From NCBI GenBank assembly GCA_041659205.1, contig JBAZYS010000004.1, forward strand, positions 587-64,586: DNA of 64,000 bases, read 5' to 3'. This document shows, piece after piece, positions 6,155-60,300 of the stretch. The notes below the pieces were generated by a model that saw only the letters and a program-made list of their open reading frames with translations, had not been told where the DNA came from and ran no database searches. The position numbers and the translations under genes were made by a program. Within the stretch, counting starts at the first letter, position 1, and each line of letters starts with the position of its first letter. The stretch comes from Minisyncoccota bacterium (lineage in GTDB: Bacteria; Patescibacteriota; Minisyncoccia; Phycocordibacterales; UBA9973).

Positions 6155-6161
6155 ATTATTA

Positions 6162-6268
6162 AATTATGACATAACTTTTCGTAGGGGTTTTGCGAGTGAC
6201 GACGAGCAAACTTCAGGATTCTTTAAGCTTCAAAGAATCCGTACCGTAGAAGAGTTGATGTCATAATT
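6162..6268. repeat. copy 1 of a ~95-nt structured intergenic element (candidate ncRNA) with a closing inverted repeat
   Basis: Core 6175-6258 is ~85% identical to 17028-17111. It is flanked by the 11-bp inverted repeat AATTATGACAT / ATGTCATAATT (6162-6172 / 6258-6268). Internal 9-bp hairpin GGATTCTTT-aagcttc-AAAGAATCC (6216-6240). Confidence 0.6.
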
Positions 6269-6273
6269 GCTTA

Positions 6274-12721: not shown

Positions 12722-13612
12722 TTAACTAAAACTTGCATGAATCTCTCCGAGCTCTTCTTTAATTAATCCTTTAATTTCCATAACAGACAAAAGTGCATTA
12801 GCTGTTGGGGTGGGCATTTTCATCGCCCGAATTAATTCATCACGTGGGGCTGGTTCACGAAGTAAATTTACGACTAATTTTTCTTCTGGTAATAAATCTA
12901 AAAATAGCTTTGCTTGTTTTTCTTTATTTTTTGGAAGCTCAAAACCGAGAGCTTCCAAAACTTCTTCACTGCAAGTAACGGGCGTCGCCCCCTGATGTAA
13001 TAATTTATTCACCCCTTTTGAATTAGGAGAAAATATTGAACCAGGCACGACCAATACATCTCTATTGTATTCTGTTGCAAGTCTAGCCGTTATTAGTGTA
13101 CCAGACCTTTCTTCGGCCTCTATTATAAGTGTCGCTCTTGATATTCCCGCCATTAGACGATTTCTTCGGCCGAAGCTCCATAACGTTGCCTTAAAATCAG
13201 GTTCAAATTCTGACAAGAAGCATCCACCATTTGCGAAAATTTCTTCAGCCAATTTTACATTTGTTTTGGGGTACATCGCTTCAGGCGATAATCCTGAACC
13301 AGGAAAAACTAGAGCCCTTAATCCTACAGACAATGCTTTCTTATGAGCGATAGCATCTATACCCATAGCAAGGCCAGAAACAATTACTATCGGATAGCCC
13401 TTGAGTCCTCCAATTATCTTTTCGCAAGCTTCACGCCCGTATGAAGTAAATTTTCTAGAACCAACGACACAAAGGTAAATTAATTCCTCTGGTGGCAGTT
13501 CGCCCATAACCCAGAGGTCTTTCGGTGGTTGAGGAATTTCCAATAATGCTTTTGGAAAATCACTTTTAGGTAATTTTTTTATTTTCATACGAATGCAAAT
13601 AAAAAGTAGCAA
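12722..13612 (-). CDS. dprA: DNA processing protein DprA (Smf)
   Basis: Rossmann-like DprA core (VVSGLAMGIDAIAHKKAL ... GSGTLITA) and C-terminal wHTH. 296 aa. Confidence 0.85.
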   Translation of the reverse strand: MLLFICIRMKIKKLPKSDFPKALLEIPQPPKDLWVMGELPPEELIYLCVVGSRKFTSYGREACEKIIGGLKGYPIVIVSGLAMGIDAIAHKKALSVGLRALVFPGSGLSPEAMYPKTNVKLAEEIFANGGCFLSEFEPDFKATLWSFGRRNRLMAGISRATLIIEAEERSGTLITARLATEYNRDVLVVPGSIFSPNSKGVNKLLHQGATPVTCSEEVLEALGFELPKNKEKQAKLFLDLLPEEKLVVNLLREPAPRDELIRAMKMPTPTANALLSVMEIKGLIKEELGEIHASFS

Positions 13613-13773
13613 ATATCTTTTAAAAACCGCACATAATTTTTTACTAAAAATTTGCTAAGCTCTGCTCGTCAGCCTCTGCAATGCTTTTTAAAAGTTATTT
13701 ACTACTTTTTAGTACGTTAATAATATTATGTATTCTTCTTTTCAATATGCAAAATATATTATATACTCTCTAT

Positions 13774-15039
13774 ATGTTAGATATCAAATTTATTCGTGAA
13801 AACAAAGACATTGTGCAAGCAGGTGCGAAGAAAAAGCATGTAGATATAGACATCGAACATTTGCTTTCTCTCGATGATGCACGCTTAAAAGAGCTTAAGG
13901 AAGTGGAAGAACTTCGTAGTGAAGTAAATAGAGTTTCAAATGACATTGCTCGCAATCAAGATTCCGCACTCAAGGTTCAGCTCATAGAGGAGATGCGTGT
14001 CGTGAAGGATGACATCAAGGCAAAAGAAGAAAAACTAAAAACAATTACTGAGGAATGGCAGAAGATGATGGTTCATGTGCCAAATATTCCTGATATGTCT
14101 GTACCTGATGGAGAAAGTGATGAAGACAATGTTGAAATTCGTGCCTGGGGAGAAAAACCAGTATTTAATTTCACTCCGAAGAGTCATGTGGAATTGATGG
14201 AGAATTTAGACATGGTTGATTTTGAACGCGGAGTAAAAGTTTCTGGCTTCCGTGGATATTTTATGAAGAACGACGGGGCAACTTTATTTTTTGCTTTGTG
14301 GCAATATTTTTTAAATTATTTTATTGAACAGGGTTATACCCCAATGATTGTGCCTTCACTTGTACGTAAGGAATCATTAATAGGTACTGGTATGCTTCCT
14401 CAGTCAGAAGAAGATTTATATAAAGTTGGGGAGAATGAATACCTCGCTGGGACAGCGGAAGTCGCTACGATGGGTTACTATATGAATGAAGTTTTAGATA
14501 AAAAAGATTTACCTAAAAAGTTTATTAGCTTTTCTCCTTGTTTCCGCGCGGAAGCAGGCAAACATGGTAAAGATGTAAAAGGTATCATCCGCGTACATGA
14601 ATTTTTCAAAATTGAGCAAGTCATCCTCACTGAGGCATCTCATGAAGAGTCAGTAAAATGGCATGAAGAGATAACAGCCCATGTAGAGCACTTGATGCAG
14701 ACATTAAAATTACCATATCGAGTAGTTGTAAACTGCGGTGGAGACCTAGGACTCGGGCAAGTTAAAAAGTATGACATTGAAGCTTGGATGCCTTCTCAGG
14801 CTAAATATAGAGAAACTCATTCATCTTCTTACTTTCATGATTTTCAAACTCGTCGTTTAGGAATCAAATACAGAGATGATGATGGTAAATTACGTTTTGT
14901 GCACTCATTAAACAATACTGCTTGTGCAACTTCACGATTACCTGCATCACTTGTAGAAAACTATCAACAAGAAGACGGAAGCGTTATAATTCCTGAAGTT
15001 TTACGTAAATACATGGGAGGAAAAGAAGTTATAAAATAA
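13774..15039 (+). CDS. serS: serine--tRNA ligase. The annotated ORF start at 13681 probably over-extends, and the ATG at 13774 (MLDIKFIREN) matches the canonical SerS N-terminus.
   Basis: N-terminal coiled-coil arm. Class II motifs (FRAEAGKHGKDVKGIIRVHEF, GLGQVKKYDIEAW). Confidence 0.9.
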   Translation: MLDIKFIRENKDIVQAGAKKKHVDIDIEHLLSLDDARLKELKEVEELRSEVNRVSNDIARNQDSALKVQLIEEMRVVKDDIKAKEEKLKTITEEWQKMMVHVPNIPDMSVPDGESDEDNVEIRAWGEKPVFNFTPKSHVELMENLDMVDFERGVKVSGFRGYFMKNDGATLFFALWQYFLNYFIEQGYTPMIVPSLVRKESLIGTGMLPQSEEDLYKVGENEYLAGTAEVATMGYYMNEVLDKKDLPKKFISFSPCFRAEAGKHGKDVKGIIRVHEFFKIEQVILTEASHEESVKWHEEITAHVEHLMQTLKLPYRVVVNCGGDLGLGQVKKYDIEAWMPSQAKYRETHSSSYFHDFQTRRLGIKYRDDDGKLRFVHSLNNTACATSRLPASLVENYQQEDGSVIIPEVLRKYMGGKEVIK

Positions 15040-15933: not shown

Positions 15934-16980
15934 ATGAAAAACTTTTGGAAAAAACTCAAGAAACCCATTTTCGTCTTGGCTCCCATGGCTGATGTCACGG
16001 ACTGTGCTTTCAGGCAAATTATCGCTAAATATGGCTCTCCAGACGTCTTTTGGACAGAGTTTGTATCAGCAGATGGCCTTGCACATCTGAAAGCGAGAGA
16101 GAAACTCCTAATTGATTTAAAATTTTCCAGAAATGAACATCCTATCGTCGCACAAATATTCGGTTCAAAGCCTGAGAATATAAAGACTGCTGCAGCATTA
16201 TGTAAAAAGCTTGGCTTCGATGGTGTAGATATAAATATGGGTTGCCCAAATAAATCAATTGAGAAGCAGAATTCCGGCGCCGCGATGATGAAAAATGCAG
16301 ACCTAGCTGGAGAGATTATCAAAGCTGCGAAAGAGGGGGCAAATGGTTTACCTATCTCAGTGAAAACTCGTATTGGTTACAATAAAAATGAAATTGAAAA
16401 TTGGATACCATTTTTACTTAAACAAAATTTAGCAGTGCTCACTGTTCATTTAAGAACTCGGAAAGAAATGTCTGATGTTCCTGCTCATTGGGACTTGATG
16501 AAAAGAATAGTAGAGATTAGAGACGAACTCGGAGTAGAAACTTTAATAATAGGGAATGGGGATGTCACAGATTTAGAAGATGCGAAAAAGAAAGTAAAAG
16601 AGACGGGTTGCGATGGGGTGATGCTTGGCAGAGCAATCTTTGGTAATCCGTGGTTATTTACTCCTTTGCGCTTGGAACATATTTCAAAAAGCAATCTATC
16701 TGGTGTTGCTACACCAGCGAACTTCTCGGCTCGTCAGCCTGCGAAAGGCTTTTCTCAATATGTTCCTTCGCTCCAAGAAAAACTTAAAGCCATGATAGAG
16801 CATACGAAACTTTTTGAGAAAATGCTCGTTCCGCATAAAAACTTCGCTGTAATGAAGAAGCATTTCAAAGCATATGTGAATGGTTTTGATGGTGCCAAGG
16901 AGCTTCGAGTAAAATTAATGGAAACCGAAAACGCTAAACAAGTTGCAGATATTGTAAAGGATTTCTTGAAAACTCGTTGA
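15934..16980 (+). CDS. tRNA-dihydrouridine synthase (DusB-like)
   Basis: The Dus-family N-terminal motif (VLAPMADVTDCAFRQI) and the TIM-barrel FMN-site residues are visible in the translation. Confidence 0.85.
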   Translation: MKNFWKKLKKPIFVLAPMADVTDCAFRQIIAKYGSPDVFWTEFVSADGLAHLKAREKLLIDLKFSRNEHPIVAQIFGSKPENIKTAAALCKKLGFDGVDINMGCPNKSIEKQNSGAAMMKNADLAGEIIKAAKEGANGLPISVKTRIGYNKNEIENWIPFLLKQNLAVLTVHLRTRKEMSDVPAHWDLMKRIVEIRDELGVETLIIGNGDVTDLEDAKKKVKETGCDGVMLGRAIFGNPWLFTPLRLEHISKSNLSGVATPANFSARQPAKGFSQYVPSLQEKLKAMIEHTKLFEKMLVPHKNFAVMKKHFKAYVNGFDGAKELRVKLMETENAKQVADIVKDFLKTR

Positions 16981-17016
16981 GGTATTTCTTTCTAGGGGGT
17001 TTTGAGCAGAAAATTT

Positions 17017-17116
17017 TTGGAATAATACTTTTCGCAGGGGTTTTGCAAGCGACGGCGAGCAAACTTCAGGACTCTTTAAGCTTCAAAGAGTCCGTACCAA
17101 AGAAAAGTGATTATTC
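17017..17116. repeat. copy 2 of the ~95-nt structured intergenic element (candidate ncRNA)
   Basis: Core 17028-17111 matches 6175-6258. Hairpin GGACTCTTT-aagcttc-AAAGAGTCC carries a compensatory T>C / A>G change relative to copy 1. A different closing inverted repeat GGAATAAT / ATTATTCC (17017-17024 / 17109-17116). A degenerate partial third copy lies at 16993-17016. Confidence 0.6.
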
Positions 17117-17130
17117 CAAAAATTATATAA

Positions 17131-18189
17131 ATGTACTATAATGATTCCATGCATGACTTAGCTTTATATCGTAAATACAGGCCACAGAAGTGGGATCAAG
17201 TCTTCGGGCAAGAACACATCACCGATGTATTAGAGAGCTCTGTAGGGTCAAATAAAGTCTCTCATGCATACCTTTTCGTAGGATCTAGAGGCACAGGCAA
17301 GACGACCGTAGCCCGTATTTTTGCGAAAGAGATAGGCGTATCTGTAAACGACCTCTATGAGATAGATGCCGCCTCAAACAGAGGAATAGAAGATATAAAA
17401 GAACTCCGCGACGGCGTGCGAGTGTTGCCATTCGATTCGAAATACAAAGTTTACATCATAGATGAAGTACACATGCTCTCCAAGGACGCCTGGGGTGCAC
17501 TCTTGAAGACTCTCGAAGAGCCACCAAAGCATGTCATTTTTATTCTTGCTACGACCGAGCTTCATAAAGTCCCTGAGACTATTGTTTCTCGTTGCCAGGT
17601 TTTCACTTTCAAAAAGGCTTCCGAGCTTATGTTGAAGAACATAATTTTATACGTTGCGAAGGAAGAAGGCTATGATTTAGAAAAGGGTGCAGCCGAGCTC
17701 CTTGCTATTTTAGCTGATGGTTCATATCGTGATGGCCTGGGTGAACTTCAGAAAGTTTTAAATTTCTCTAAGGGCAAGAAAATCAAAAGAGAAGACGTGG
17801 AGAAAATAACCGGTGCGCCGAAGACGACCCTCGTGAATGATTTTATAAGTGCGATAGCAGAGAAAGATTTAGAGAAAGGAATAACTGCTGTGCGAACTGC
17901 ATCAGAATCAAATTTAGATATGAAATTATATTTCAAGCTCATCATTCAGAAATTCCGCATGGCAATTATCTTGCGTTATGCTCCGAAATTAGAAAAAGAT
18001 ATGACAGGGGACTTAGGTGAGGAAGATTTAGTATTTCTAAAAGCATTAATAAAGGAAGATAAAAACAGTATGCTCCGTTCAGGAGCCTTAGCTACCTTAC
18101 TTTCTGCTTACCAAGACATAGATAATACGTTTGTCGCTGAGCTTCCGCTCGAGCTTGCTCTTGTAAAAATAATCTCTGAAGAAAAATAA
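17131..18189 (+). CDS. dnaX: DNA polymerase III gamma/tau subunit, short form (AAA+ domains only)
   Basis: YRPQKWDQVFGQEHI signature, Walker A GSRGTGKTT, Walker B/DEVH region IIDEVHML. Only 352 aa. Confidence 0.75.
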   Translation: MYYNDSMHDLALYRKYRPQKWDQVFGQEHITDVLESSVGSNKVSHAYLFVGSRGTGKTTVARIFAKEIGVSVNDLYEIDAASNRGIEDIKELRDGVRVLPFDSKYKVYIIDEVHMLSKDAWGALLKTLEEPPKHVIFILATTELHKVPETIVSRCQVFTFKKASELMLKNIILYVAKEEGYDLEKGAAELLAILADGSYRDGLGELQKVLNFSKGKKIKREDVEKITGAPKTTLVNDFISAIAEKDLEKGITAVRTASESNLDMKLYFKLIIQKFRMAIILRYAPKLEKDMTGDLGEEDLVFLKALIKEDKNSMLRSGALATLLSAYQDIDNTFVAELPLELALVKIISEEK

Positions 18190-19571: not shown

Positions 19572-19645
19572 TGGGAGATCGTCTAACGGTAGGACAGAGG
19601 CCTTTGAAGCCTTTAATCTAGGTTCGATTCCTAGTCTCCCAGCCA
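19572..19645 (+). tRNA. tRNA-Gln (anticodon UUG) with encoded CCA
   Basis: TGGGAGATCGTCTAACGGTAGGACAGAGGCCTTTGAAGCCTTTAATCTAGGTTCGATTCCTAGTCTCCCAGCCA. Anticodon loop CTTTGAA. T-loop TTCGATT. Confidence 0.85.
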
Positions 19646-19735
19646 AGTCGTGATAGGTTATCTCGCACGAGATGCGTAGAAACCAAACGATGCACTATTC
19701 AGTCAAAGCATACCTGCTGAGAGCAGTATTCAGAA

Positions 19736-19764
19736 CAAAAAAACACCCTAATCGGTGTTTTTTT
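19736..19764 (+). terminator. Rho-independent terminator downstream of tRNA-Gln
   Basis: A-run, ACACC-ctaatc-GGTGT hairpin, T6 run. Confidence 0.55.
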
Positions 19765-21853
19765 GTTTGGTCTGATTTATCTTTCGGAGAAACTCTGTAT
19801 ATGCTATATTAGATTTAATATGGATGAATTTTTGGCTAACCTTTTACCTGGAAATTATTGGATAACAAAATCCATGGAATTTTCAAAGACCAATACCAGT
19901 GGCACTCTATGGTATCTTAAAAAATGGTTTGTTTACTATTACTATATTTTCTTTAAAAAAACGATACACGAGAATGATTATTTAGAAATAATAGAAATTT
20001 TTGATAAATTTATAATATCGCTAGATTCACGTGTCCAGGATAAAGCCAGGGGATTTTTTTATGAAATAGATATAAGGGCAAATTTTACAAGAATGAATGC
20101 TTTTTGTGACACCAGCGGAACTGTCTTCCCATCAGCTCGAGAAGAAGCCCAATCCATGGTTGAAGCTAAAAAGTTTTATTTTATGTATGTTATGGGCATA
20201 GGAGGACAAAGTGGTTATAAAAAAGAAATATTAGAACTTATCCAAGCTGGCACCTCATACACTGAGATAAAAAAAGTTATGGTAGAAAAAATGGAAAGTG
20301 ATGGAATACAATCGAACGATATAAAAATTCAATTTTCAGATTTTCCCGCCGCTATTCGCAATGAGAGACAAATATTTTTTTACTATGGGTTATTTCATGG
20401 TAGCGACAAGAAAGATTTGTCTGGTTTCTATACTATGACTCGACTAGGTAGATCAATAATATCTGCAACATTCTATGAATTAATAATTATATGGGAACAT
20501 CAAAAATTAAAGATGATATCCCAAAATCCAGATACGAAAATTGATTTAGGTAGCCATACCGTTAATACAAATTTGAATTATCCTGCTTTTGGTATCCATT
20601 ACCATCCATATGTAGCACTGTTAAAGACTCTAACAAACTTACAAACAACCAGTAAAGAAATCTATCAATTTTATATTGCTAGACTAAAAAATTCTCACGA
20701 TTTGAATGTTCTTTCGGAAAAAGTTAAGACCACACCTGCAGCGATAGAAGATATAAAAACAAAAATTGCATCTTTTAACAGAAAGGGAGATTTAGCAACG
20801 GAAGATTTTCATAAAGAATTTAAAAAATATGTCTTGGGGATTAGTAGTCTACCTTTAGATAATAATACTAATTTGTTCTCTTTTCTTTCTGAAGATGGAC
20901 TTGAGGTTGAGGATAATCCAAAAATTAGTTTTGTAATTAAATGCTACGACATAATTGCTAAATACTTAGATTTAAAAAATTCAGATAACTATAAAAACTT
21001 TGAAGGTAGTTTAAGACAATATTATCTTGCGCAAGTTAATAAAACTCCTTTCGAATATGACCCAGAAATAACATATGAATGGCATAAATATATAATATCT
21101 CCCGAGACTGCAATTATTTTAAGTGTTATCTACATATACTGCGCGCTAAAAAATAATAAATATGGTTTTGATTTAAGTGAAGCAGAAATTAAAGCCAACT
21201 ATAAGGAATTCAAAAACCTTTTGGAAATCACGGGTATTGGTAAGCAAAGTGATTTTATAGAAAACATACAACGAATTCAATCAGAACTCTCAGAAGGATC
21301 ATTGATGATGGCTTACGATACAGAGGAAGAGGAAATTCCTACTGTGTTTGATGAACTGGTTGATGAAAGCAAACTTGCTGAAATTTCAAAACGTACTAGT
21401 GCATTTAATGTTACCAGAAAAAGAAGTTCTGAAGTCATAAATGCTGTCAGAAGTTATTATCGAAAAAACTTTGAGCTTCCACCGGATAATCTTATTAAGT
21501 GTGATGCTTGTAGTGAGAAAACTTTTATGACAAAAGGTCAGTATGCTTATCTGGAATTTCATCATTTCATTCCTTTCTCTACTGATAATGGTCCGGATCA
21601 TTATCTAAATTTAGTTGGAATCTGTCCAATTTGTCACCGAAAATTCCATCATGCCACTAAAGATGTTAGGAAGGCTCTTTATGAAAACCTGTCAACAAAC
21701 AATAATATGAGAAAAACTCTAGATTTTCGTGTAAATAAATTATACGAGGAACGTGTACTCGAGCCATTAAATATTGAATTTCTCAGAAAGGAAAATATCA
21801 TCTCAAGGGAGAAATACGAAACTTACATGAATCAAGAAATTGTTGTTAGTTAA
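19763..21853 (+). CDS. large protein with a C-terminal HNH endonuclease domain (probable restriction endonuclease of the adjacent R-M module; likely true start is ATG 19820)
   Basis: C-terminal CDACSEK...EFHHFIPFS...NLVGICPICHRKFHH is the CxxC...HH...CxxC-H HNH/beta-beta-alpha-Me motif. Converges on and overlaps the MTase operon by 8 nt. Confidence 0.65.
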   Translation: MFGLIYLSEKLCICYIRFNMDEFLANLLPGNYWITKSMEFSKTNTSGTLWYLKKWFVYYYYIFFKKTIHENDYLEIIEIFDKFIISLDSRVQDKARGFFYEIDIRANFTRMNAFCDTSGTVFPSAREEAQSMVEAKKFYFMYVMGIGGQSGYKKEILELIQAGTSYTEIKKVMVEKMESDGIQSNDIKIQFSDFPAAIRNERQIFFYYGLFHGSDKKDLSGFYTMTRLGRSIISATFYELIIIWEHQKLKMISQNPDTKIDLGSHTVNTNLNYPAFGIHYHPYVALLKTLTNLQTTSKEIYQFYIARLKNSHDLNVLSEKVKTTPAAIEDIKTKIASFNRKGDLATEDFHKEFKKYVLGISSLPLDNNTNLFSFLSEDGLEVEDNPKISFVIKCYDIIAKYLDLKNSDNYKNFEGSLRQYYLAQVNKTPFEYDPEITYEWHKYIISPETAIILSVIYIYCALKNNKYGFDLSEAEIKANYKEFKNLLEITGIGKQSDFIENIQRIQSELSEGSLMMAYDTEEEEIPTVFDELVDESKLAEISKRTSAFNVTRKRSSEVINAVRSYYRKNFELPPDNLIKCDACSEKTFMTKGQYAYLEFHHFIPFSTDNGPDHYLNLVGICPICHRKFHHATKDVRKALYENLSTNNNMRKTLDFRVNKLYEERVLEPLNIEFLRKENIISREKYETYMNQEIVVS

Positions 21854-25419: not shown

Positions 25420-25750
25420 CATGATGTCAGAGAAAGGGTCTTTTGCTAAGACTCGCTTGTTGGCAACTTGTTGGTAACTTTCCTCTGTGATTTAAAGGTT
25501 CTGCGATAGGATGGGCTTGGAATAATAGGGTCGAAAGTGGTATTATTCATTTACAAGTAAATAAGTAGTAGCCTAAACCTTTGGAAACAAAGGCATGGCG
25601 AAGAAGTCGATCAAGCGTAAAGAACCTATCATATAGGGTCGCTTGATCGCCATATTGGGAAACCAGTATGAGTACCGCAAGGTACTACCTATGTGGTAGG
25701 CTTTTTGCGTCTTACCCTAGGATTTTATAAATAAAACGCAACAAAAAAAT
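25420..25750. other. GC-rich structured non-coding region upstream of the serine recombinase gene (candidate recombination site or regulatory RNA)
   Basis: No ORF. Several perfect hairpins (TCGATCAAGCG/CGCTTGATCG 10 bp, GTACCgcaaGGTAC, GGTCTTttgctaAGACT). Confidence 0.3.
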
Positions 25751-60186: not shown

Positions 60187-60300
60187 TGAATGTAGTGAAT
60201 ATATTTTAATAACCCTGTTAAATGATTTTTGTAAAACAAAAATCAAAATCCAAAAGATTTTATTTAACAGGGTAAAGATTTTAAAATCGTTTCACTCATT
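60186..60300. other. nested inverted-repeat structure in the ctp-rplI intergenic region
   Basis: TAACCCTGTTAAAT (60210-60223) / ATTTAACAGGGTAA (60262-60275) 13/14 bp. Outer AATGAATGTAGTGAA / TTCACTCATT partial pairing. Confidence 0.35.

Follow-up and report, generated by a model that had tools for sequence, protein, structure and literature searches.

What occupies the spacer in front of dnaX? In the 64,000-nucleotide stretch analysed here (the window), 150 nt separate dus (15934-16980, Pfam Dus) from the dnaX start given in the open reading frame list (17131; the conserved start is the ATG at 17149), and they hold a structured repeat that a preliminary description had recognised as the second of two copies. 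The position directly upstream of dnaX, the hairpin-shaped fold of about 100 nt and the paired 5′ and 3′ ends all recall SRP RNA. However, the element has a branched cap where SRP RNA has a domain IV helix with a GNRA loop and AGCA/GGA loops. A genome carries many copies of it, close relatives lack it in this spacer, and in locus L001 it is inverted (collected loci carry L numbers). When the 351 nt of 16900-17250 were scanned with cmscan against all 4227 families of Rfam 15 at E ≤ 10, the only hit was a 12-nt chance match to DUF805b (9.6 bits); no SRP model matched, and no Rfam family covers copy 2. The homologous regions of L012 and L001 gave sub-threshold matches only, mostly to miRNA and snoRNA hairpin models, which we attribute to the long AU-rich stems, and at Rfam gathering thresholds the whole window returned a LOOT RNA and two tRNAs and nothing else. 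SRP RNA is expected as one essential gene per genome that relatives keep, whereas the window has two intact copies and a relic, and the spacer is empty in L002 and L086-L088. We therefore rejected ffs on the missing covariance-model match and the many copies per genome, in agreement with the preliminary description, which had not considered the element an obvious 4.5S RNA.

Copy 2 is a capped hairpin made of an outer stem, a U/A inner stem and a conserved three-way-junction cap (Table 1). Its outer arms form a perfect 15-nt inverted repeat (100% complementary) and enclose an 82-nt core (17027-17108) with 89% identity to 6174-6255 in copy 1. The minimum free energy of -39.6 kcal/mol corresponds to a z of -6.1 against shuffled sequence; copy 1 reaches -5.1 with the same fold shape. 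The structured repeat stands where it had been placed. A 28-nt core pattern with at most 3 mismatches matched only these two copies in the window, where shuffles expect 0. In both window copies the P2 strands are GGGGUUUUGC and GAGCAAAC around a GACG loop, and the P3 consensus is GGAYUCUUU-AAGCUUC-AAAGARUCC. The CC of the junction in copy 2 probably pairs with G17037-G17038, as modelled by folding; the GUACC was fixed by our search pattern and hence lies outside the covariation support described below. The inner P1 is taken from folds of single copies, and a U-run and an A-run are kept at its position across the family alignment.

Nine differences separate the two cores, and two of them are compensatory pairs: C17050-G17055 at the P2 tip and C17072-G17090 in P3 of copy 2 are both U-A in copy 1. 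A template/variable repeat pair of a diversity-generating retroelement (DGR) was rejected on these differences, which are compensatory transitions and not adenine-specific. The two copies have outer arms of unrelated sequence, and those of copy 2 are peculiar to this dus-dnaX locus and the orthologous one in L001. Both neighbours of copy 2 share its orientation, unlike those of copy 1, which has positional orthologues in L174, L141/L166 and L197.

Table 1. Positions of the repeat elements and their parts. Positions are those of the window unless a locus is named; R1 is the covariance model of the family.
Feature	Position	Strand	Details
Copy 1, same family as copy 2	6159-6270	+	R1 106.4 bits; between murA(-) and miaA(-), antisense to both
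Member of sister family, type 2	13601-13710	-	R1 23 bits, E about 1e-3; dprA-serS spacer
Relic, truncated 5′ half of an older copy of the "framed" subfamily	16969-17007	+	nhmmer 28.4 bits, E 6.6e-8
Copy 2, complete capped hairpin	17012-17124	+	113 nt; R1 106.2 bits, E 4e-31 (17012-17123)
5′ outer arm of copy 2, AATTTTTGGAATAAT	17012-17026	+	pairs with 17110-17124
Inner P1 of copy 2, 5′ strand CUUUUC	17028-17033	+	pairs with GAAAAG 17103-17108
GGGG, then hairpin P2, copy 2	17037-17066	+	tandem G.A internal loop, 2-4 bp tip, GACG loop 17051-17054
Hairpin P3, copy 2	17069-17093	+	GGACUCUUU, loop AAGCUUC (17078-17084), AAAGAGUCC
Junction GUACC, copy 2	17094-17098	+	pairing predicted in most single-sequence folds
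3′ outer arm of copy 2, ATTATTCCAAAAATT	17110-17124	+	inverted-repeat partner of 17012-17026
Family B copies	L001 2885-2992; L085 55-162; L012 9892-10003, 8622-8746
Family B copies	L092 13489-13600; L182 5259-5363, 5487-5587

The two copies first noticed turned out to belong to a family of more than 120 retrieved members, with several subfamilies and at least two sister families. Scanning metagenomes with the pattern CAGG-N7-AAGCTTC-N7-CCGTACC returned at least 120 stretches, and these hold more than 120 further copies on Paceibacterota (CPR) contigs; extraction by regular expression from all collected sequences gave 133 matches, only one of which (L187) looks random. We aligned 116 distinct copies (alignment A2). 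The common plan is a nearly perfect outer stem of about 10-30 bp whose sequence differs by locus, an inner stem of a U-run and an A-run, and a three-way-junction cap with the near-invariant junction bases GGGGUUU, AAYUUCAGG and CCGUACC, from which rise P2 (tandem G.A, 4-bp tip, GNCG loop) and the AU-rich P3 (loop AAGCUUC). The median hairpin length is 139 nt and the range about 115-170 nt. Part of the cap invariance stems from the search pattern, which imposed CAGG, AAGCUUC and CCGUACC, so that the constancy of the P3 loop and of the GG/CC base is uninformative; among the bases that the pattern left free, GGGGUUU, three positions of the GNCG loop (G, C and G) and the AA preceding YUU are near-invariant over the 116 copies.

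The fold is supported by covariation. In the 116-copy alignment 90.3% of the cells are paired and 15 pairs are changed on both sides, in 245 cells; none of 500 shuffles reached any of the covariation measures, and pairing dropped to 30-56% in controls with slid partners. Nine of the 11 pairs of P2 and six of the 9 of P3 are changed on both sides, with 99% of the P3 cells paired, and the tandem G.A motif of P2 alternates between two neighbouring positions. RNAalifold found P2 and P3 independently, with compensatory changes in 12 of 18 pairs. Four type-1 copies (type 1 being the family of copies 1 and 2) carry extra GC-rich hairpins of 19-35 nt in P2 or between helices, with the junction sequence kept (L111 117-251, L147 1652-1789, L165 5109-5239 and L167 4278-4391); judging from these, the cap appears to tolerate expansion segments.

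The model R1 had 121 matches in the 0.65 Mb of retrieved loci. In 1.27 Mb of control loci, which came from a DnaX-based scan of contigs, belong mostly to distant phyla and served as negative controls, it matched only L001, L012 and, weakly, L005. In these searches the family is confined to one lineage of Candidatus Paceibacterota (Parcubacteria, CPR). Nine contigs terminate within the element, as expected of a repeat. Neither GGGGTTTTGC-N12-GCAAACTTCAGG nor CAGG-N7-AAGCTTC-N7-CCGTACC had a match in viral contigs, and thus there is no sign of phage carriage. The literature that we searched holds no description of a capped-hairpin element in CPR bacteria, nor anything on CPR non-coding or repetitive DNA of this kind. 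The family is many-copy, previously uncatalogued and new relative to Rfam 15.

Only one strand takes this fold. The G.U pairs at the base of P2 are invariant in the 116 copies, and the pair next to them is G-C in 76 copies and G.U in 38. In the outer stems, with about 32 aligned positions per copy, there are 127 G.U against 52 A.C combinations (p 2e-8), and the excess is the same in every gene-orientation class, whether the flanking genes are co-oriented or opposed. Since G.U pairs would be A.C mismatches on the opposite strand, the folding strand is the window + strand, for which the fold is specific. We considered mutation bias as a source of the excess and rejected it by reasoning, as the bias of a negative-skew strand would make A.C pairs and not G.U.

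The spacer itself has been occupied before. Immediately upstream of copy 2, the preliminary description had seen a degenerate third copy at 16993-17016. A partial third copy is indeed there, with different limits: it starts 24 nt further upstream (Table 1), as we found with a profile of 59 columns that represents the 5′ halves of "framed" copies; its positions 2-41 were matched. Nor is it a truncated tandem duplicate of the GGGGTTTTGC..GAGCAAA core, as had been thought; instead it is the 5′ half of a "framed" copy, with the outer frame AAAACTCGTTGA, the stem and GGGGGTTTTGAGC, the frame of that subfamily being AAAACTCGTTGA...GAGAAAGAGTTT. The relic provides the final codons of dus (KTR and the stop), and a shorter remnant of it, AAAACTCGTT, is retained at the same place in L001. 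The relic is what is left of an older copy, from another subfamily than copy 2, which displaced it. Because it lies beside copy 2, the dus-dnaX spacer must have been occupied at least twice, or three times with the different subfamily of L012 included, and the suspicion of repeated element activity at this site proved correct.

DnaX homologues place the window among Candidatus Paceibacterota/Nomurabacteria-like CPR bacteria, and its relatives vary at this spacer. L001, whose DnaX is 88% identical, has an element in opposite orientation with similar arms, and L012 (DnaX 73%) has one in the window orientation with a different 24-bp stem. In L085 (DnaX 95%) the spacer has a bare hairpin only, tttttgaaataGCAttatttcaaaaa, and in L002 and L086-L088 (DnaX 83-86%) it is 9-12 nt long and lacks the element. 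The bare hairpin raised the idea that the core is inserted into the loop of a pre-existing hairpin. We rejected this as a general rule, as the outer stem is also missing at empty orthologous sites; the L085 hairpin is better read as an internally deleted copy. Downstream of copy 2, a perfect TATAAT (within 17137-17151) lies 6 nt upstream of the conserved dnaX start (ATG 17149, MHDL...), which suggests that the dnaX mRNA is leaderless. Another gene pair shows the same layout, tgcTATAATaatattATG, where its orthologous spacers are empty (L114 and others).

Pairs of orthologous sites, found among the collected loci by flank-anchored BLAST, show which unit is gained or lost. Between recA and efp, L137 is filled and L167 empty; L183 is filled against six empty relatives, L097 against L172 and L099, and L150 against L202. 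In all four comparisons the indel is the whole hairpin, and as it includes the outer stem, the arms belong to the element and not to a pre-existing target hairpin. No clear direct repeat that would mark a target-site duplication was seen in the four comparisons, where the flanks are diverged and AT-rich. In 34 pairs of positional orthologues from diverged genomes, identity was 76% in the flanks, 89% in the cap and 65-68% in the arms, and the element was flipped relative to its flanks in 8 of them. The arms therefore change faster than the flanking genes at orthologous sites and yet retain their pairing; the genes adjoining paired copies are housekeeping genes. Across the family, arm sequences are common only within subfamilies and decay outward, and every copy has long inverted arms. 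It is thus the whole hairpin that related genomes have gained, lost, truncated or inverted. Insertion polymorphism is what would point to mobility, and it is the single line of evidence that does so.

Two relatives of the family also form capped hairpins. Type 2 has the architecture and the P2 module of type 1 and differs from it in the P3 loop (CAGCAG) and the junction. Its members are the window copy and copies in L005, L096, L099, L146, L151, L160 and L186. The window copy has 27-nt arms (93% complementary), a z of -4.5, a P3 loop UAGUAA (CAGCAG in most relatives) and a ...UGUGCGG junction. A positional orthologue lies in the dprA-serS spacer of L005 (6536-6644), where DnaX is 77% identical to that of the window, and the same spacer holds type-1 copies in L092, L112 and L155. 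The serS start of the open reading frame list (13681) overlaps the type-2 copy; it is probably over-extended, the conserved start, MLDIKF, being near 13774 as in L092. The third family of capped hairpins, B, has a long AU stem and a GC-rich cap with AGGGAMCCCA, and no Rfam match. It lies directly upstream of dnaX in L001, L085, L090, L012 and L092 and occurs in a dozen other loci, often beside type-1 copies; it is absent from the window. In three loci a type-1 and a type-2 copy stand back to back on opposite strands of one spacer (L151 4417-4641, L160 4733-4948 and L146 1046-1275), an arrangement that resembles the mosaic clustering of repeat types in BIMEs.

How do these copies come to be where they are, and what keeps them? 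The reading that we prefer, with somewhat better than even confidence, is that copy 2 is a member of a new family of MITE/REP/ERIC-like palindromic repeats, the single-stranded fold of which, most likely as RNA, is under selection. The element would spread non-autonomously, in the manner of the palindromic MITE, REP, ERIC, Correia and RPE repeats, and the sense-strand form, most likely RNA, would be the one selected. The invariant cap may serve as a recognition module for a host factor, copies being kept by selection, and the long stem may act in cis on neighbouring transcripts, either as an RNase III-type processing site, as a 3′-end barrier or as a block to antisense read-through.

In several respects the family behaves as such repeats do. 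MITEs are shorter than 300 bp, non-coding, multiple and polymorphic in insertion; here the median length is well within that limit, the copies are non-coding (0 of 132 lie inside open reading frames, all being intergenic) and occur in at least 120 stretches, and four filled sites (L183, L137, L097 and L150) face empty ones in relatives. ERIC (IRU), the Correia/NEMIS elements of Neisseria, the RPE of Rickettsia and the MITE-like repeats of Coxiella and others are long intergenic hairpins of 100-170 nt in many copies, with terminal inverted repeats common to all copies and an unconstrained centre. The capped hairpin resembles ERIC, Correia and RPE in length, in its long hairpin, in lying in either orientation to genes, in presence or absence at orthologous sites and in being non-coding, and it shares with the Rickettsia RPE a reduced host genome and the lack of a known transposase. 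In contrast to them, its centre is conserved and covarying, and its arms are subfamily- or locus-specific and fast-evolving, though still paired. REPs are simple hairpins of 20-40 nt with a GTAG-type tetranucleotide, and REP/BIME elements go with RAYT transposases. Like these, our elements are extragenic palindromes, and type 1, type 2 and family B stand adjacent to each other in L001, L012, L182, L151 and L160; unlike REPs, the capped hairpin is 115-170 nt long and has a branched cap, and the alignment shows no GTAG-type motif.

For the high conservation of the cap at orthologous sites, an RNA gene useful to the host is at least as good an explanation as a selfish repeat. The copies could form a multigene family of trans-acting small RNAs, in which the stem is cut, for example by RNase III, and a cap RNA of about 90 nt binds a protein or an RNA through the invariant junction, in loose analogy to Y RNAs or other RNAs that serve as protein scaffolds. 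This we consider unlikely, although it merits more weight than any of the readings that follow. Conservation of the cap exceeds that of the flanking coding DNA at orthologous sites, the pairing of the stem is kept while its sequence is not, and the fold is strand-specific whatever the orientation of the neighbouring genes; junctions of several stems that keep about 20 unpaired bases nearly invariant are characteristic of RNAs that have a specific partner, and the type-2 copy is retained in the dprA-serS spacer of both the window and L005. However, tens of copies per streamlined genome of about 1 Mb would be unusual for a trans-acting RNA, and truncated or decayed copies, presence and absence at orthologous sites and flips of orientation are typical of repeats.

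The surroundings of the copies also speak against small-RNA genes. No -10-like signal was found at a fixed distance upstream of the sense strand, and a dedicated promoter was rejected on that account; there is no consistent terminator either, and no convincing promoter or terminator goes with copy 1 or copy 2 in the window. A conserved partner gene is likewise missing from the vicinity, the neighbours being as diverse as topA, dprA, serS, dus, recA, efp, ftsZ, map, adk, xerC and xth. With respect to the strand of the element, its flanking genes (upstream/downstream) are opposite/opposite in 37 cases, same/opposite in 21, same/same in 14 and opposite/same in 11, so that all four classes are present with a bias of the element towards antisense to local genes. 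As the folding strand is mostly antisense to genes and has no promoter of its own, a role as RNA, in the preferred reading too, would need antisense or read-through transcription. A related possibility, which we regard as rather unlikely, is that the cap is more than a piece of a repeat and represents a new, functional RNA fold that has a specific biochemical task, either a CPR-specific protein docking module or a new small ribozyme, deployed genome-wide opposite most genes, its copies arising by duplication of the whole unit and being fixed by selection. It might, for example, serve to end or process antisense transcripts that start at AT-rich promoters of the leaderless type in these very compact genomes.

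Strand specificity and flips could also be the mark of a DNA site. A single-stranded or cruciform form of the element may be the substrate of a recombinase or HUH-type enzyme (attC-, REP/RAYT-, IS200/IS605- or Xer-like), and insertions, flips and cassettes flanked by direct copies would then be products of that recombination. The strand-specific fold tolerates G.T, 8 of 34 orthologous sites have the element flipped while similar arms stay in place, and copies on one contig are mostly co-oriented. In L095, two near-identical type-1 copies (1185-1296 and 2408-2519), alike in their outer stems too and in direct orientation, flank a 329-aa accessory open reading frame inserted between trxB and ftsZ, which looks, from this arrangement, as if it had been integrated by recombination at the element. 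The orientation is also biased with respect to GC skew, the sense strand being on the negative-skew strand in 49 of 68 copies (49:19, p 4e-4), a bias that is confounded with gene strand (r 0.76). However, a sense strand on the negative-skew side is mostly the leading-strand template, the strand that is not exposed at replication forks and the opposite of what IS608-type elements use, and the 127:52 G.U bias of the arms argues that flips are rare.

The comparison with integron attC sites points the same way. Folding of one strand, structure more conserved than sequence in part of the hairpin, a top that can branch and, in L095, one gene flanked by direct copies are common to both, yet attC has conserved boxes at the stem base and a variable top, and the capped hairpin is the reverse. 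It has no R and L boxes, arrays or nearby intI: the R″/R′ (RYYYAAC/GTTRRRY) and L boxes are absent from the variable stem bases, neither they nor the GTAG REP motif are visible in the alignment, and copies are dispersed among housekeeping genes. No integrase, transposase, invertase or intI adjoins the copies examined, and the XerC-like genes beside copies in three loci look like housekeeping genes. An invertible promoter switch (inverton) would be a segment between inverted repeats that occurs in both orientations, carries a promoter and has an invertase; here both orientations occur at one site in different genomes (8 of 34 pairs), no promoter-like site is found inside the core of either window copy, and no invertase is adjacent. 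We consider a DNA site distinctly improbable.

A three-way junction with many invariant unpaired nucleotides on a variable closing helix might instead be a catalytic or ligand-binding RNA, that is, a new self-cleaving ribozyme or an aptamer-like module, dispersed in a manner analogous to hammerhead or twister ribozymes. The many dispersed intergenic copies in either orientation would suit this, as would P2, which tolerates large insertions in L111, L147 and L165 with the junction kept. Against it, no ribozyme or riboswitch family of Rfam matched at E ≤ 10 in the copy 2 region, L012 or L001, the copies have no consistent 5′ UTR position such as a riboswitch would have, and hammerhead-type core motifs are absent on inspection; both strands were checked by eye, and the CUGACGA stretch in the P2 loop is unconserved in other copies. 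Of all the readings this seems to us the least probable. Characteristic genes or terminators accompany the orphan multi-stem RNA motifs known from comparative genomics, such as DUF3800, drum and skipping-rope (Weinberg et al. 2017, PMC5737381). The capped hairpin shares with these motifs, and with dispersed small ribozymes, a multi-stem junction, many invariant nucleotides, a variable closing helix and a location outside 5′ UTRs; it differs from the orphan motifs in having no fixed neighbour, a much longer closing stem and the behaviour of a repeat.

Finally, the copies could be intrinsic terminators or insulators of an elaborate, bidirectional form that arose in place, between one transcription unit and the next. 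Of the copies, 87% have a gene 3′ end on at least one side, the stems end in A-rich sequence 5′ and in T-rich sequence 3′, and a U-tract (at least 6 T in 8) follows the stem about twice as often as in background sequence, on either strand (28% of copies against 13%). Where orthologous spacers are empty, they measure only about 10-30 nt, and the -10 box of the next gene comes directly after the stop codon. Nevertheless, neither window copy was called a terminator, for which a G+C-rich hairpin immediately followed by a U-tract would be expected, and 13% of the copies lie between divergent genes. Evolution in place would explain neither a cap about 90% identical at more than 100 unrelated loci nor insertions of the whole unit, and we judge it very improbable; a general terminator role is weak, because only 28% of copies have the U-tract.

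CPR bacteria have tiny, streamlined genomes, and the hosts of this element are a group of ultra-small groundwater bacteria in which it is scattered between housekeeping genes. The family fills spacers that are otherwise only 10-30 nt long, at more than 100 loci, with a cap conserved above the neighbouring housekeeping genes. If it is selfish, hairpin repeats can invade minimal genomes and persist there without a recognisable transposase, as in Rickettsia and in organelles, and contig breaks in CPR assemblies would also be explained. Should it benefit the host instead, it is an abundant and unexplained RNA of a major uncultured lineage. In either case, a ready-made covariance model is now at hand that Rfam lacks.

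The window has other features of note, outside the families studied. Long hairpins at 1075-1135 and 60212-60273, the second of them branched, have z values of about -4.5 each. A 696-aa open reading frame (19763-21853, +), whose sole Pfam hit is an HNH nuclease domain at residues 580-630, lies directly downstream of a tRNA-Gln (19572-19645) and a terminator-like hairpin (19734-19767). The LOOT RNA (RF03000) at 25570-25686 on the + strand scores 85 bits against a gathering threshold of 46.4 and is the only curated RNA other than tRNA in the window.
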